Origin: a virus
Virus record (IMG/VR): IMGVR_UViG_3300017917_001434
Location: 1-64,000 of that record
DNA length: 64,000 nt
Direction: 5' to 3' (one strand)
Shown here piece by piece: positions 2 to 30,215 of the stretch. A model generated the notes under the pieces. The model did no database searches. It was not told the origin of the DNA and was given only the letters and a program-made list of their open reading frames with translations. Positions within the stretch are counted from its first letter, which is position 1. Each line of letters starts with the position of its first letter. The position numbers were made by a program, and so were the translations under genes.

Positions 2-106
2 TTGACTAACCCAACAGACGCTTTAGGTGCTGCTGGTGGTTACGCTGAATTGACTAAGTACAACGCTGCTCCTGGCGGCGGTGCACTGAACGTGTTCAGT
101 TTGTAA
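2..106 (+). CDS. xoxF: C-terminal fragment (5' truncated by window edge) of PQQ-dependent methanol dehydrogenase large subunit, XoxF/MxaF family
   Basis: Frame +2 reads LTNPTDALGAAGGYAELTKYNAAPGGGALNVFSL-stop(TAA 104-106), matching the C-terminal pattern of methanol dehydrogenases (L.D/N.T..LGA.G.Y/F..L..Y...GG.L.VFSL). Only 34 residues are visible, so XoxF versus MxaF is inferred. Confidence 0.8.
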   Translation: MTNPTDALGAAGGYAELTKYNAAPGGGALNVFSL

Positions 107-120
107 TCTGTAGTTGATCT

Positions 121-146
121 AAAAAGCCCACTTCGGTGGGCTTTAT
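121..146 (+). terminator. Rho-independent terminator after the dehydrogenase gene
   Basis: AAAGCCCAC-TTCG-GTGGGCTTT hairpin. Confidence 0.8.
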
Positions 147-185
147 CTATTAAATAGTATTGTAAGTTAACTAAAGGATAGTAAA

Positions 186-485
186 ATGAAATACATTTTA
201 GCAATCGTTTTAGCAACAAGTATCAACAGTGCTATAGCTAATGAGTCTCTTGCTCAAAAGAGTGGTTGTTTAGCCTGCCATAACGTAAATGTTAAGGTTC
301 TCGGTCCAGCATATAAAGACGTAGCAGCTAAGTATCGCGGACAAGCAGGTGCTGAAGACAAATTAGTAGCTAAGGTCAAAGCAGGTGGTAGTGGTGTTTG
401 GGGTGCTATTCCAATGCCGCCGCATCCGCAGATTAAAGAAGAAGACATTAGAACTATAGTAAAATGGGTATTAACCCTTAAGTAA
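186..485 (+). CDS. Periplasmic class I cytochrome c (c551/c552-like)
   Basis: Signal peptide, CLACH haem motif, GPAYKDVAAKY, and WG..PMPP carrying the Met axial ligand; TAAATA at 151-156 and AAGGA RBS. Confidence 0.93.
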   Translation: MKYILAIVLATSINSAIANESLAQKSGCLACHNVNVKVLGPAYKDVAAKYRGQAGAEDKLVAKVKAGGSGVWGAIPMPPHPQIKEEDIRTIVKWVLTLK

Positions 486-20144: not shown

Positions 20145-20395
20145 TGAAAGAACTTGTATTAAACGACGATTGGCAGTATAACAATGAAGAAGAGGCTGAA
20201 ATGGGCCAACTTCATGCTATCCATAACAACATGAATGCTGTAGCTGACGTGCGCCGTAAGTTACTGGAACAAGCTGCACAACCTAGCGCAGAGTTCTGTG
20301 AAGAGTGCGGTGATGAAATCCCAGAAGCTAGACGCAAGGCTGTACCAGGTGTACAGTTCTGCGTATTCTGTCAAGAAAAACATGAGCGTAGATAA
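20144..20395 (+). CDS. DksA/TraR family C4 zinc-finger protein
   Basis: CEECGDEIPEARRKAVPGVQFCVFCQ. Confidence 0.88.
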   Translation: MKELVLNDDWQYNNEEEAEMGQLHAIHNNMNAVADVRRKLLEQAAQPSAEFCEECGDEIPEARRKAVPGVQFCVFCQEKHERR

Positions 20396-21506
20396 TATTT
20401 GTTTTCATCCATGGGTAGGATTAGATATTGGTCCCCAAGGTGAGTTTAAGCCTTGTTGTAAATATCAAAACAGTATTGCCAATAACATTGATGATTACTA
20501 CAACAGCAAAGAATTAGCTGATCTTAAAGATGCTTTCTCACGAGGAGAACGGCCAACTGGTTGTCAGCGTTGTTGGAGTGATGAGGATGCCGGTCATCCT
20601 AGCAAACGTTTAGATGACTGGAAATATATTTTTAATGAAACAGTTCCTAACACAGACAAACTAAAAGTTTTAATGTTTGCCTTTGGTAATAGTTGTAATT
20701 TAGCCTGTCGAACCTGTAACAGTTATTCGTCGTCAACTTGGATCATTGAATCGAGAAAAGTTATCGATTTATTCCCAGACTCTAAGATATATAAGCACCA
20801 GAGATTTTATCAAGACATCTATTTACTCGATCGTTTAAAGTCTTTAGGATCAGACATCACCGAGCTGTATTTTCATGGTGGCGAACCATTCATTGCTGGC
20901 ACTGCTGAACACTTAGATTTTTTAAAATATTTCCTTACTCAACGGCCTGAAAATATAACTTTGCATTACATGACAAATGTCACAATATTTCCTCAGCAAG
21001 AATTTTGGGATATTTGGAAACAATTTAAAAAAGTTAACATACAGTTGAGCATTGACGGTATTGGTTCACATTTTGAATATACTCGTTGGCCTGCGAAATG
21101 GACCGACGTTGAATTAAATATCAATCAATATAAACAGTATTCAGGCGACAATATAAAATTATCAGTGGGACACGTGATTAGTATTTTTACAGTCTACTAT
21201 CTGCCAGAATTTTATAAATGGCTATTACAAAATAAATTTGTTGATCCGTTTATTAGTCTGCTAGCAGACCCTGAAATCTATAATATTAAAACTTTACCCA
21301 AAGATGTTAAAGATCGTGTTGCTGAAAAATTGACAAAATATAAGTTTGACACTATAATACAGTATATGTATTCTGAAGATTTAAGCGGTACATTTGGTCA
21401 AACCGCAGAGTATACAAGAATATTGGATCAACAGAGAAATCAAAATTTTGAAAACACTTTTCCAGAATTTAATCAATTATTAAAGGAATCAGGATGCCAA
21501 ATTTAG
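20382..21506 (+). CDS. Radical SAM protein with N-terminal SPASM/twitch-like Cys cluster
   Basis: CNLACRTC and GGEPF; N-terminal CFHPW..PCC..CQRC. Confidence 0.88.
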
Positions 21507-22114
21507 TACCAATGGTTTTAGAGCGTACATCAGAAGGTGAACGCAGTTATGATATCTACAGTCGATTGCTCAAAGACCGTATTGTCATGCTAGACACTGA
21601 AGTTAGTGAACATTCAGCCAGTCTGCTAGTAGCACAGTTGCTATTTTTAGAAGCAGAAAATCCAGAACAGGATATTTTGTTTTACATTAACAGCCCAGGC
21701 GGTAGTGTTACTGCTGGTCTAGCAATTTATGACACTATGCAGTTTATCAAACCAGACGTGCGTACTATTGTAATTGGACAGGCTGCCAGTATGGGCAGTT
21801 TTCTAGCACAAGCCGGTGCACCAGGTAAACGTTATGTGTTACCCGAATCGCGTACAATGATTCACCGTGTGAGCTCGGGCACACGCGGCACAGGCGGTAG
21901 CGTGTATGTACAGGAATTAGAGTTTGAAGATGCACGTCGACACTTAGAAGAAAGCAAACGTTTAAATCAACGTCTGACAGAGTTGTATGTTAAGCACAAC
22001 TCTAAAGGCAAGGCCTATGATGAACTTGCCGAGGCAATGAAGTTTGATACCTTTTTATCAGCTGAACAGGCAGTTGAATATGGCCTAGCGGATGAAATCA
22101 TTACCAAACGCTAA
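21494..22114 (+). CDS. clpP: ATP-dependent Clp protease proteolytic subunit
   Basis: [31 protein letters not shown] (catalytic Ser), MIH. Confidence 0.95.
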
Positions 22115-23378
22115 CGTCTTTTGTAATACACCATGGTACGAGGCTCACATCTATTGGGATGGGAGTCTCGGTATCTGCTGTCAGGAAAGTTTTAAACTCA
22201 GCGAAGATCCTCAATATAATATCCGAAACATGACTCTAGCCGAGTGGTTTAACAGCGAGCCTGTTAGAAAGCTTCGGTTGGGTATTTTAGGCAACGACGG
22301 CTTACCTATTTGTAATCGTTGTTACCAAGAAGAAACACACAGTGGCACTAGCCGTAGACACCGTAGCAATCAAAAAAGTGTAATCTTTACCAAGCAGGCA
22401 TTTGCGGAAAGTTTTGATCAAAGCCCAGGTTACGAACACTTTATGTTCAGCAAAGGTATGGATGGACTTACTACAACCATGCCCATTGATCTGCATATTG
22501 ATTTAGGTAATCACTGTAATTTAGCCTGCAAGATGTGTTGGCCAGGTGCTAGCACACGTATTGCTAGCCAATGGGTTAAATGGGGACTTCCTGCTGAACA
22601 ATATCTTGGCGTAGACTGGACCAAAGATGAACAGGTCTGGCGCAGGTTTATGGGCGAACTGGTTGCCATACCTAAACTTAAGAACATACATTTTATGGGC
22701 GGCGAAACACTGTTAAGTCCTAGACTAGAGCAACTAATAGATCACATGATCACGCATAAAAGATTTGATGTTTGTTTTAGTTTTGTCACTAACGGAACAG
22801 TGTATAAGCCGGACTTAATTGAAAAGCTCAAACTGTTTGGGCGGGTAGGCATTGAAATCAGTATAGAAACAACTACTCGGCACAATGATTATATACGGCA
22901 AGGATCTCGGGTTGAAGAAGTCATTGAAAATATCCAACGTTATAAACAGCTATGCGACGGGTCCAAGGTTAGTCTTACTCTACGTCCTGCTATCAGCGCA
23001 TTATCTATTGGATACTATCATACACTACTACAATTTTGTTTAGATGAACAACTATTAATCAAGAGCTTGATAGTGAGAGATCCGCGGTATCTAGAACCAT
23101 CAGTACTGTCGCATAAAATACGCGAGCATTACATACTACCTTACTTAAAAATGTTAAATTCTCTAGGCGATGTTGATACTATTACAGATTACAACGAAAG
23201 TGACCCAAACAATTATCTTCGGGTAGTTAAACAACAGGTAGAACAGGTAATAAATCTACTTAGAGAAAGTCCCAAATCTTACGCTACCGCGGAACTATTA
23301 CATTGGTGTCAGCGTTGGGACAAAGAGTTTGGTTTTGACATGTTTGAACTCTATCCAGAATTTAAGGATCTAAAATGA
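22092..23378 (+). CDS. Radical SAM protein with N-terminal SPASM/twitch-like Cys cluster
   Basis: [16 protein letters not shown]; N-terminal CNTPW..CC..CNRC. Confidence 0.88.
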
Positions 23379-24041: not shown

Positions 24042-24353
24042 ATGGACTTGTTTAAGGTAGGTGGTGTATCAACTCACAATGGCAAAACTAAAGTTCGATT
24101 TGCTAACGATTTAGTCAGTCGTGTTAAGATGCTGGTCAAAGGCAATCACCAAGACATTAATTTAATGGAGTTGCCTGCGGCAATGACCAAGGGCGAAGTA
24201 GTTAAACATCTTAAGACCACAGATCTTATGAATACACCTAAGTTTGCTGATGCTATTACCACAGCAGATGAAAAGTACAATACAGTTAAGTTCTCTAAGA
24301 AGCCTGAAATTAGCCTTGATGCTATCAAGGCTAGAGCCGGTATAGAAGCCTAA
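24042..24353 (+). CDS. Hypothetical phage protein
   Basis: AGGAG RBS; KVRFAND motif. Confidence 0.7.
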   Translation: MDLFKVGGVSTHNGKTKVRFANDLVSRVKMLVKGNHQDINLMELPAAMTKGEVVKHLKTTDLMNTPKFADAITTADEKYNTVKFSKKPEISLDAIKARAGIEA

Positions 24354-25797: not shown

Positions 25798-25838
25798 TTG
25801 ACCGATAAACTGTTATGTAGTACAATTAGCAATAAATA
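25798..25838 (+). promoter_or_regulatory. Tandem sigma70 promoter and late TAAATA motif upstream of the tmRNA locus
   Basis: TTGACC(25798)-N17-TACAAT(25821); TAAATA 25833-25838. Confidence 0.6.
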
Positions 25839-26106
25839 TTCACATGAACGGTGAATATAGATTAAACAATTTAGGTGAATTGGAGGTGTATCGTGAAGGT
25901 TATTGGCAACCAGCATAACATATTTTGGTACCATAAACTTGGCTGTACCTGCCCAATTTGTAGTGTATGATTAAGTTTATTAAACGATTATTTCAAGGTA
26001 AGGACTATGTAGGTTATAGACCTTATTGGTTTAAACAGCGTAAACACTAAGGTAAGGACTTCAAGACGGCGGTTCGATTCCGCCCAGGTCCACCAAAAGG
26101 TATCTT

Positions 26107-26211
26107 ATGGAATATATTTGGATAACAGTATTTGTTTCAATTCATATTTGGGCATTATTAAAATATGAATCAGATGAAAAAATAGACCAAATGTGGCAAG
26201 ATAATTTTTGA
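26107..26211 (+). CDS. Putative 34-aa peptide in the tmRNA intervening segment
   Basis: AAGG 6 nt before ATG; MEYIWITVFVSIHIWALLKYESDEKIDQMWQDNF-TGA; ends 1 nt before tmRNA G1. Confidence 0.45.
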   Translation: MEYIWITVFVSIHIWALLKYESDEKIDQMWQDNF

Positions 26212-26428
26212 TGGGCCTGACCAGGTTTCGATTGGGGTAGATAGAATAAGTGCGCTCGAGAGTCGACTGACGTAATCAGCGAAAAACTAGTAAATGCAAA
26301 AGCAAATACTTCTAACGTAGTCAAAGTATCTATGGGCCGTGGCTTCCGCTTCGGTACTCGTAATACTGAGGCTTTAGCAGCTTAGTACTGCCGTTCGGGG
26401 CAGTTATGCCTTGTTACCCAAAATAACC

Positions 26429-26449
26429 AAACCCGCTTCGGCGGGTTTG
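26429..26449 (+). terminator. Terminator-like hairpin at the end of the tmRNA coding piece
   Basis: AAACCCGC-TTCG-GCGGGTTT. Confidence 0.75.
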
Positions 26450-26567
26450 CTACCTTTATAAAGAGGTTGACAAATACACTAAATCGTGTATAATTATAAT
26501 TGTAGATGAAACATTCTACACTTTATTGACGGTGCATTGTGCATCATTTAACATAAGGAGAAGTAAT

Positions 26568-27623
26568 ATGGCTAAACGCCTCACACGTAAACTTACGGAC
26601 GTTGTCGCTGAAGTTGAACAACAACTTAAGGCACACTACAACGTAACTCAAAAAGAATTAGACAGTTGGCGCAAACGTGCTATGTCTAGCCCACATCAAT
26701 TCCCAGAAAGTAAAATGGTTGCTATTGAAGAGCTTTATATTGACTATGAAGTTCAACGTGATGTTTTACACAAACACATTATCAATATTATGAAGAAGTG
26801 GGATCCTCGTATTTGTAGTCCTGTTAGTGCTTGTCGTCTTACAGGCAAAGAGCACAGTGATACATATGATGGGCAACACAGAACTATCAGCGCCGCTATA
26901 CTAGGCTATGTAGAAATTCCTGGTGCAGTTGTAAACACCGATGATCCAAACTTTGCTAGTTATGCGTTTGAACAGTTAAATGACACAGGTGTTAAACGTT
27001 TGAATCCAGGTGACCTACATCGTAACGCCTTGGTACGTTATAAGAATGGTAGCCGTGATATTAAAAACGTTCGTGCTCGCACTTTACAGGATCAATTTGA
27101 CGCACTGGAAATTGACCTACAAGATAAAAATGCACGTGGCAGTGATACCCTGTGTGGTGACAATGAGTATTTCTTTAGTCACTTTAAGTATGCTCAAAAA
27201 GGTGTAGAAATTGATGAGTCGGGCAAAGTTCTCTATAATATCCTAAAGGCAATTAGAGATACTTTCCCAAAACAAGAAGAAATTGATCAAGGTGTTTTTA
27301 TTGGACTTTGGGAACTACAACGTTTAGCCAGTACTAATCCAAATGTTAAGTTGCCCGATGGTTGGATGGAATCTGTGCTTAAAACAATTAAGACAGTTTT
27401 CAAAGGTTCGCACCTAGTACACTCTAAAGCCAAAATACAATGGGAACATAGTCATCCAGGTGCAGGCTGGACTGCTCCAACAGCAATGAGTAACTTTATA
27501 CGTGAAATTTATATGTATGCCGGTGGTGATATCAACTTGCCATATCATGGTGATGGTAGTAAGGTTGGTATTATTGATAACAATCCAGCACCAGGATTAT
27601 TTCCTGAGAAAGTTGAGTCATAA
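26568..27623 (+). CDS. ParB/Srx-superfamily protein with DGQHR motif
   Basis: ID..VQR...WDP...YDGQHR...FEQLN; AAGGAG RBS; sigma70 promoter at 26467-26494. Confidence 0.7.
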   Translation: MAKRLTRKLTDVVAEVEQQLKAHYNVTQKELDSWRKRAMSSPHQFPESKMVAIEELYIDYEVQRDVLHKHIINIMKKWDPRICSPVSACRLTGKEHSDTYDGQHRTISAAILGYVEIPGAVVNTDDPNFASYAFEQLNDTGVKRLNPGDLHRNALVRYKNGSRDIKNVRARTLQDQFDALEIDLQDKNARGSDTLCGDNEYFFSHFKYAQKGVEIDESGKVLYNILKAIRDTFPKQEEIDQGVFIGLWELQRLASTNPNVKLPDGWMESVLKTIKTVFKGSHLVHSKAKIQWEHSHPGAGWTAPTAMSNFIREIYMYAGGDINLPYHGDGSKVGIIDNNPAPGLFPEKVES

Positions 27624-28180
27624 TGTTGCAAGAATCTTTAGAAAAGTTTATTGCACCAATCTATGGTAAAACACAGCGCAGTACTGATACTTACAAAACT
27701 GTAGCAGCACACTGTTCTCGTCATATCCAGCGTTTAGTTGAAGAGTATTCACAGGTTGAAAACGATCAACAGTTGTTACGTGAAATACGTAACGACATTG
27801 ACTACTACCTACGTAGATATCACGAGTACTGTATTCAACAGCGTGATGGTATGAAAGCACACTACCACGAAGTTGGTGCCGATGAAGACTGTGACTTTGA
27901 GCATTTGATTCCAGCGGCACGTATTCGTGACCTACTGTTAGCTGATGCTATTACTGTAGAGCAGGCACTCAATGCTCCTACTGTACGTTTGAGTCGCAGT
28001 AAACATCACGCATTAAAAGACGCCGGCTGGGCTAGTAAGACACCAGACATGTGGAGACCATTCCGCCGTTACACTAACGTGTTTACAGCAGAATATCAAA
28101 CACACGATGGTACAGCAATAGACCCTGAAACCTGGACCTTGGAACAGCATTATAATTATTTTAAACATTTGGTTATCTAA
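27623..28180 (+). CDS. Hypothetical protein with HNH-like FEHLIP motif
   Basis: TAATG-coupled to the ParB-like gene; DFEHLIP...KHH. Confidence 0.55.
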   Translation: MLQESLEKFIAPIYGKTQRSTDTYKTVAAHCSRHIQRLVEEYSQVENDQQLLREIRNDIDYYLRRYHEYCIQQRDGMKAHYHEVGADEDCDFEHLIPAARIRDLLLADAITVEQALNAPTVRLSRSKHHALKDAGWASKTPDMWRPFRRYTNVFTAEYQTHDGTAIDPETWTLEQHYNYFKHLVI

Positions 28181-28295: not shown

Positions 28296-28589
28296 ATGAA
28301 GTTAAATCCCATACATGACCGTGTGGTCATTCGACGTATCGAAGCCGATACACAATCTGCTGGGGGTATCATAATCCCAGATACAGCCACAGAAAAACCC
28401 GATCAAGGAATCGTCTTAGCAGTAGGACAAGGTCGCCGTACCGAAGATGGTGTACTGGTGCCTATGACTCTTAAAGTTGACGATCGAGTATTGTTTGGCA
28501 AGTTTGCAGGACAACAAGTTAAGATTCAAGGTGAAGAACTACTGATTCTTCGCGAAGAAGATATTTTTGCAGTAATTGAGGAGGTTTAA
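28296..28589 (+). CDS. groES: Co-chaperonin GroES
   Basis: [17 protein letters not shown] mobile loop, [14 protein letters not shown]. Confidence 0.95.

Positions 28590-30215
<1,626 letters not shown>

Follow-up and report, generated by a model that had tools for sequence, protein, structure and literature searches.

An uncultured giant phage carries a genuine circularly permuted (two-piece) transfer-messenger RNA (tmRNA) gene, confirmed here by tmRNA detection and covariance models, with a tag reading frame of 29 codons. The window, that is, the whole stretch of 64,000 nucleotides analysed here, comprises bases 1-64000 of an 89,592-bp IMG/VR virus record with a CheckV completeness of 22%, which implies a genome of several hundred kb and thus a jumbo phage. 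We consider it likely, from sequence comparisons, that the gene yields a functional, phage-encoded tmRNA of the betaproteobacterial type that is processed into two pieces and adds a bipartite tag to rescued chains. In part of the clade to which this phage belongs, the predicted tag is bipartite, with a basic and hydrophobic extension (core VKVSMGRGFRF) standing before a C-terminal degron. The tmRNAs of phages are usually treated as curiosities of large phage genomes, and we know of no clue to the benefit that they bring beyond the host copy.

Identity and parts of the tmRNA gene

At 26003-26476, ARAGORN called a permuted tmRNA whose tag is AKANTSNVVKVSMGRGFRFGTRNTEALAA (its output carries the remark 'Tag not identified'). 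The Rfam model RF04321 (tmRNA_permuted) matched with 104.2 bits against a gathering threshold of 47 (E 3e-19), while RF01850 (beta_tmRNA) gave 88.3 bits, only just over its gathering threshold of 84. The strength of these matches is far beyond chance, and ARAGORN and permuted tmRNA covariance models, the check that an earlier note on this DNA had proposed, thus agree with its reading. The parts of the gene are as follows.

25798..25826, + strand: candidate sigma70-like promoter, TTGACC-17-TACAAT, 10/12, predicted from a consensus scan
26037..26095, + strand: acceptor piece (3' tRNA-like half), from Rfam alignment, ARAGORN and covariation; 5' end approximate
26037-26040 and 26058-26064, + strand: AGCG and ACTTCAA, 5' strands of the inter-piece helices, in the acceptor piece
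26068-26084, + strand: T-arm, GGCGG-TTCGATT-CCGCC
26085-26091, 26092 and 26093-26095, + strand: acceptor 3' strand CAGGTCC, discriminator A and CCA
26096..26212, + strand: intervening segment of 117 nt, predicted to be excised
26213..26449, + strand: coding piece, from Rfam, ARAGORN and covariation
26213-26219, + strand: acceptor 5' strand GGGCCTG, then the D-loop analogue GGTTTCGA
26232-26238 and 26253-26256, + strand: TTGGGGT and CGCT, P2 3' strands in the coding piece
26291-26295 and 26296, + strand: resume context TAAAT and start of the resume codon GCA
26296..26385, + strand: tag frame AKANTSNVVKVSMGRGFRFGTRNTEALAA, 29 codons plus TAG (26383-26385), from ARAGORN
26320..26352, + strand: core of the tag extension, VKVSMGRGFRF, from the codon table; also within a covarying hairpin
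26396..26413, + strand: post-stop hairpin CGGGGCA/GCCTTG, covarying across the family
26428..26449, + strand: intrinsic-terminator-like hairpin CAAACCCGC-TTCG-GCGGGTTTG; T-run weak in the window, good in relatives

The positions that the earlier note had given for the two halves, the acceptor stem, the CCA end at 26095 and G1 at 26213 were all exact when the sequence was re-read. The 7-bp acceptor stem contains the G3.U70 pair that it had described (G26215 pairs with T26089), and the 29-codon frame that it had read from GCA 26296 after TAAAT is the same tag that ARAGORN called independently. The candidate promoter could drive the tmRNA precursor. Between this promoter and the tmRNA gene stands a 25-codon ORF (25893-25970, MKVIGNQHNIFWYHKLGCTCPICSV) with a strong GGAGGTG Shine-Dalgarno sequence and a Cys-rich 3' part; in relatives, the tmRNA gene begins right after the stop codon of the upstream ORF. 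Rfam finds no riboswitch at the window's tmRNA locus.

The possibility that the order of the halves is an assembly artefact was dismissed because more than 25 independent IMG/VR contigs, drawn from different samples, and Logan contigs of several studies share the identical permuted order. Four sequencing runs yielded contig fragments of relatives in which the permuted order is the same and the intervening segments are different. One wastewater 'RNA-Seq' run contained only small conserved parts of the locus, as contigs.

RNA structure, covariation and the intervening segment

Covariation was analysed among 14 unique family sequences. Pairs 2 and 4-7 of the acceptor stem covary, and G3.U70 is kept in 14/14; the acceptor stems found in the family are GGGCCTG/CAGGTCC, GGGGGTG/CACCTCC, GGGGTCG/CGACTCC, GGGGATG/CATCTCC and GGGGGTG/CGCCTCC. 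The T-stem and the inter-piece helix P2a (26058-26064 with 26232-26238) covary in the same sequences, as do the post-stop hairpin (26396-26413), in which the alignment pair 292/300 is C-G, U-A or U-G, and the terminator hairpin (26428-26449). By alignment reading, the outer inter-piece helix joins AGCG (26037-26040) to CGCT (26253-26256), and relatives have CGUUG/CGACG or AGUUG/CAACU in its place. In the PK1 region, the Rfam hairpin at 26257-26272 contains two non-canonical pairs, relatives have a clean ACGUG/CACGU hairpin, and no partner for a PK1 pseudoknot was identified upstream of the resume codon.

Deviant tRNA-like domains were also encountered in the family. An aberrant T-loop, GGCAGAA or GGGCGGTT replacing TTCGANT, occurs in L133, L141, L150 and L155 (the 329-kb complete phage and others) and in L298, together with an altered D-loop analogue (AGATTCGA); these tmRNAs are missed by ARAGORN and score 92-125 bits with Rfam. 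The CCA end is not encoded in L123 and L148, where ACTG follows the acceptor strand.

The intervening segment ranges from 26 to 194 nt among relatives, and its sequence is unrelated between subgroups. Its ends pair in every member, forming a 9-14-bp closing stem with 3-6 unpaired bases before G1. Such a stem in all members is what a single precursor, cut by RNase P and trimmed at its 3' end, would need, and we infer that the precursor is processed into two RNAs. The segment of the window holds a 34-codon ORF (26107-26211, MEYIWITVFVSIHIWALLKYESDEKIDQMWQDNF) with an SD-like AAGG that ends 1 nt before G1. Two relatives with long segments have unrelated ORFs at this place: in L147 one of 36 aa, with an AAGGA SD and a hydrophobic helix at its C-terminus, and in L129 one of 73 aa that runs into the tmRNA 5' half. 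No homology was found among these three ORFs, and members with short intervening segments (26-63 nt) have no such ORF. The excised loop may offer small genes a site in which to insert.

Gene neighbourhood and phage origin

The gene is assigned to a phage because it lies in an IMG/VR virus record and because its synteny extends across contigs as long as 329 kb, one of them a complete genome. The tmRNA is the sole tRNA/tmRNA gene of the entire 89.6-kb record. Upstream of it in the window lie a DksA/TraR zinc-finger protein and radical-SAM/SPASM proteins on either side of ClpP, and downstream lie GroES and GroEL, then fibre-like proteins. Neighbours of the tmRNA include the following.

21494..22114, + strand: ClpP, 206 aa; PF00574 217.7 bits, NF001368 253.9 bits (cut-off 249)
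24042..24353, + strand: conserved 103-aa protein of unknown function, a clade marker independent of the tag
28296-28589, + strand: GroES, downstream neighbour of the tmRNA throughout the clade
28593-30215, + strand: GroEL, downstream neighbour of the tmRNA throughout the clade

The Ser/His/Asp triad of the window's ClpP is conserved in an alignment with solved ClpP. Relatives have ClpP proteins 80-84% identical to it and GroEL proteins about 80% identical. A full-length ClpA is encoded outside the window, at record positions 66702-69008 (TIGR02639 830 bits); it aligns end to end with E. coli ClpA (PDB 1ksf) and has both Walker A motifs and the IGF ClpP-docking loop.

Several further features of the neighbourhood were recorded. 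The two radical-SAM/SPASM proteins (402 and 428 aa) flank ClpP at 20298-23378 of the window, preceded by the DksA/TraR zinc-finger protein, and this radical-SAM/ClpP/DksA arrangement is also kept in relatives; this setting is unusual for ClpP and might be a sign of peptide maturation. At 26467-26494, a sigma70 promoter that matches the consensus perfectly (TTGACA-16-TATAAT, 12/12) lies ahead of a two-gene cassette (26526-28180; 365 aa and 185 aa) that stands between the tmRNA and GroES. The cassette looks like an insertion, because it stands at this place in this phage only and, apart from one weak partial match, no counterpart was found at the loci of relatives. The TTGACA...TATAAT element itself is kept 3' of the tmRNA terminator in most relatives.

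The host is probably a betaproteobacterium with a two-piece tmRNA. At the start of the window (2-485) are the C-terminal 34 residues of a protein ending in ...GGGALNVFSL, then a 99-aa cytochrome c (CLACH) with a signal peptide. This hints at the tail of a XoxF/MxaF-type methanol dehydrogenase and its cytochrome; a methylotrophic host, if that is right, would fit the beta-type two-piece tmRNA and the 40% G+C.

Distribution in an uncultured jumbo-phage clade

Relatives were collected by three scans of IMG/VR. A scan for the T-loop plus acceptor 3' strand gave more than 119 loci, nearly all of them permuted tmRNAs and most with tags of 10-13 residues (e.g. ANDERFALAA), a subset sharing the window's long tag. 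Scanning for MGRGFRF-coding DNA added further members, some of which are missed by ARAGORN but found by Rfam. The 103-aa marker sampled the clade independently of the tag and gave more than 324 relatives, of which 80 loci were fetched. Contigs of the clade reach 329 kb (with direct terminal repeats, rated 100% complete), and others measure 218, 201, 158 and 149 kb. The gene order DksA-like, ClpP, radical SAM, 103-aa protein, tmRNA, GroES, GroEL is conserved, and this shared syntenic place of a tmRNA across a large clade of uncultured jumbo phages is new here. Neither blastn of the locus against 50,697 GenBank phage records nor tblastn of the 103-aa marker against the GenBank phage records gave a match, and no cultured relative was found in these phage-record searches; the nearest ClpP is that of Pseudomonas jumbo phage PA5oct (62.6% identity).

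Matches to the exact 31-nt 3' half were confined to permuted tmRNA copies of Cupriavidus, apparently extra ones, and two CPR MAG contigs. In several Cupriavidus genomes (L158-L163; G006, G007), permuted tmRNA genes encode the tag ANDEKFALAA, and their 31-nt 3' half is the same as in the phage; in one genome, as many as three matches exceed the Rfam threshold. These genes may be additional copies borne by mobile elements. A sample of 151 Burkholderiales genomes contained three strong permuted tmRNAs, with tags of 10 residues. None of our conclusions draws on the unpublished genome G033.

The tag and its extension

The tag frame is open and conserved in all relatives, and three types of tag occur at one position in the clade: canonical 10-residue tags (ANDEVYALAA, ANDSRFALAA, ANDSQFALAA, ANDEVFALAA and ANDSLFALAA), 14-residue tags (ANENSYFEEFALAA) and tags of 28-34 residues. 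The long tags share the motif [VAF]-K-[VF]-[SATK]-[MVA]-[GNS]-[RK]-[GDA]-[FVIA]-[RKF]-[FL]-[GAS], with the core in summary form [VF]-K-[VF]-S-M-G-[RK]-G-F-[RK]-[FL] and the core variants VKVSMGKGFRF, VKVAMNKGFRF, AKVSMGRDFRF, VKVTVGKGFRFG and FKFSGKGVKLA. In two long tags the C-terminus is the canonical-looking AANDS.VLLAA, so that the long form looks like an ordinary tag with an extension added before it. Conservation is stronger in the core than at the C-terminus (ALAA, AVAA, ATFA, AVLA, LLAA), and several tags of the family end in ATFA, AVLA, AVLV or AFAV, not LAA.

The codon pattern shows that the extension is under selection at the peptide level. In the codon table of the marker-based sample, the core Ser has four codons (TCT, TCA, AGT and AGC), the basic positions have CGT, CGC or AAA in one case and CGC, CGT or AAG in the other, and five codons occur at the Phe/Leu position. 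Because conservative replacements are thus accompanied by switches between codon families (TCN/AGY; CGY versus AAA/AAG), the core is conserved as amino acids. The MGRGFRF scan retrieves only sequences that keep MGRGFRF, which makes synonymous-only variation within this stretch partly a matter of ascertainment, and the argument for peptide selection is therefore drawn from the marker-based sample. Part of the conservation is at the RNA level, since the tag-coding region also folds into a conserved hairpin with some compensatory changes; in the closest relatives, the nucleotides of the core hardly vary. One compensatory pair in this hairpin, that of L152, is synonymous on both sides. Such compensation beside the codon pattern indicates constraint on both the RNA and the peptide.

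The alternating hydrophobic and basic residues around a G-[RK]-G turn suggest a beta-hairpin. That the extension is an additional binding determinant is speculative, and the precedent for it is the extended, Lon-directed tags of Mollicutes. DNA encoding VSMGRGFRF was absent from 185,579 bacterial and archaeal species (one genome each), GRGFRF was absent from the searchable literature, and a six-frame translation of the 89.6-kb record contained no tag motif elsewhere.

The marker-protein tree mixes long and short tags and needs at least 4-5 changes between them, although the marker is short (103 aa) and the tree weakly resolved. Treating the long tags as a single clade was unsupported, as 53 of 500 label shuffles did as well. 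From this mixture it seems that the tag form has been gained, lost or exchanged repeatedly. In the IMG/VR viral contigs L012, L053, L072, L068 and L115, beta-type permuted tmRNAs carry long tags of another, unrelated family (ANADTFDFSAMSFTGN[TS]VSGKSKVALAA, ANADTFEFSGFNFTGNTVRGAANEGRFALAA and AEDADTFEFGALSFTGNTVGGEVAVAA). Tags seem to have become extended on more than one occasion.

Clp partners and dependence on host SmpB

The earlier note had found no smpB in the window, and none was found there, in the rest of the 89.6-kb record or in the complete 329-kb relative. Its proposal that the phage supplies its own rescue RNA is upheld for the RNA only, given that SmpB is absent even from the complete relative, and the phage would therefore need host SmpB. 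More broadly, SmpB, ClpX, Lon and SspB were all absent from the record and from four large relatives, including the complete 329-kb one. ClpS is present in four relatives.

ClpA (~770 aa; TIGR02639 800-837 bits) is found in every large clade contig examined, with long tags in G001-G004, G162 and G163 and with short tags in G158, G159, G166 and G167. An association of the long tag with a phage ClpA was considered and rejected, as ClpA is clade-wide, short-tag contigs included. The ClpA/ClpP/ClpS/GroESL set is therefore a trait of the clade and is not tied to the extension. Taken together with the interspersion of tag types on the marker tree, this indicates that the extension is dispensable for the clade and not ClpA-tied. 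The suggestion that the long tag alters adaptor or protease routing is plausible in view of the peptide-level selection and the phage ClpA and ClpP, but ClpA also accompanies short tags, so that no specific link is seen.

Proposed mechanism and alternatives

The following steps are drawn from the established biology of tmRNA. The tmRNA would be transcribed as a single precursor, possibly from the promoter at 25798-25826, in which the 3' tRNA-like half (to the CCA at 26095) would pair with the 5' half (from G26213). RNase P would remove the 117-nt intervening hairpin 5' of G26213, and 3' trimming would proceed to the encoded CCA, giving an RNA of two pieces joined through the acceptor stem and the P2 helices. 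Host AlaRS would charge this RNA through G3.U70, and host SmpB and EF-Tu would deliver it to stalled ribosomes. Translation would resume at GCA 26296 and add 29 residues ending in ALAA, a degron of the ClpXP/ClpAP type, and the tagged product would be degraded through this C-terminal ALAA by ClpXP or ClpAP. With low confidence, we propose that the role of the RNA is to keep ribosome rescue running during infection and to feed tagged products into Clp proteolysis, and that the extension would add a second determinant for recognition or binding.

More tentatively, and with the odds in our judgement somewhat against it, the tag in a subclade of uncultured freshwater jumbo phages could be a two-part signal in which a conserved, beta-hairpin-like module of basic and aromatic residues (VKVSM-GRG-FRF), joined to the front of the usual C-terminal degron, forms a handle for a dedicated partner. 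Candidate partners within that reading, again doubtful, are the phage ClpA/ClpS/ClpP system, phage GroEL or a host protease such as Lon. If a two-part signal does exist, every rescued nascent chain in the infected cell would carry a handle specified by the phage, which would be a virus-evolved re-routing of trans-translation products.

The tmRNA could instead be a working one whose long tag is a mere by-product of an extended RNA helix, or a neutral spacer, with a peptide that has no function. The long, partly compensated hairpin of the tag-coding region and the near invariance of the core nucleotides in the closest relatives are what such a by-product would leave, and close relatives have short-tag tmRNAs at the same position. 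In the tag-independent sample, however, conservative replacements come from unrelated codons (Ser TCN/AGY, Arg/Lys CGY/AAA/AAG, Phe/Leu); RNA pairing alone does not predict this codon pattern, which weakens the by-product explanation, and we regard it as unlikely. We give still less weight, though not a negligible one, to an RNA that acts chiefly against the host by competing for SmpB or by re-tagging host nascent chains and altering their fate. A mycobacteriophage tmRNA-like RNA that lacks a coding sequence inhibits host tmRNA, according to a study as cited in PMC11915505; the phage here has no SmpB, and the ATFA, AVLA, AVLV or AFAV endings of several family tags would suit such a function. 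Against it, the full tRNA-like domain, the resume context and the selected frame favour productive trans-translation, and the tag of the window ends in the canonical ALAA.

It is very improbable indeed that the locus plays no part in the phage, being an assembly artefact, the remnant of an attP site or host DNA carried as a passenger. tmRNA genes are common integration sites, and many other IMG/VR matches with canonical tags may be host flanks of prophages, but the gene analysed here is full length and always occupies the same syntenic place in dozens of jumbo-phage contigs, one of which is a complete genome. Both covariation and coding selection also speak against a passenger, as does the absence of the tag core from the 185,579 species genomes. 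We thus retain, as the likely explanation, a functional phage tmRNA that is processed and tags in the manner proposed above.

Comparison with known systems

Permuted tmRNAs are established in Alphaproteobacteria, Betaproteobacteria and Cyanobacteria (PMC11915505). With the betaproteobacterial two-piece tmRNA (RF01850/RF04321), the gene described here shares the permuted order, the 7-bp acceptor stem with G3.U70, the T-arm, the inter-piece P2 helices, the UAAAU-GCA resume context and a tag ending in ALAA. It differs in being phage-encoded and in reaching only 88 bits on the beta model (threshold 84), in its tag of 29 residues as against 10 in the three permuted genes of the 151-genome Burkholderiales sample, in its long intervening segment with a small ORF, and in a minimal post-tag structure of one hairpin plus terminator.

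Phage two-piece tmRNAs are not new as a kind, since they have already been published (PMC9004378; PMC7162821). Among unique phage tmRNAs, 53 of 133 are two-piece, these 53 coming from isolate phages and 50 of them being marine or aquatic (Buchholz et al., 2022; PMC9004378). The Methylophilales phage Melnitz and the pelagimyophages resemble our phage in having a complete permuted ssrA in a lytic-looking aquatic phage without smpB, and the role proposed for their tmRNA is upkeep of hijacked translation or tagging for proteolysis (PMC9004378). The Melnitz gene is of the alphaproteobacterial type with a glutamine riboswitch, whereas the window's gene is of the beta type with no riboswitch by Rfam, has an extended and conserved tag, and has ClpP and GroES/GroEL as gene neighbours. 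Huge phages also carry tmRNA, some of them together with SmpB (Al-Shayeb et al., 2020; PMC7162821), and phage G has a tmRNA with a 13-residue tag alongside ClpP and ClpX (PMC12484599). A jumbo phage with a tmRNA plus Clp protease genes is common to these and to our clade; some of them encode SmpB or ClpX, whereas the clade of the window encodes ClpA, ClpP and ClpS, with no SmpB and no ClpX.

Nor are long tags new as such, because the ssrA tags of Mollicutes are extended and recognized by Lon (PMC9382460). These tags share with ours a length far above 10-11 residues and extra residues that carry recognition information, which makes them a precedent for long tags that re-route substrates to another protease; they differ in being bacterial, in ending in AFA and in their unrelated sequence, and the phage of the window encodes no Lon. 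The E. coli tag contains binding sites for ClpX, ClpA and SspB, and ClpS lowers the action of ClpA on it (PMC9382460). To judge from the searchable literature and from 185,579 species genomes, a bipartite, peptide-selected tag in an uncultured jumbo-phage clade that encodes ClpA, ClpP and GroESL is undescribed. The phage copy departs from bacterial ones in a defined way, with an extension conserved as amino acids amid phage Clp and chaperonin genes. What this extension does matters for the question of whether giant phages seize protein quality control as well as translation, and it could serve as an orthogonal degron in synthetic biology if a dedicated partner exists.
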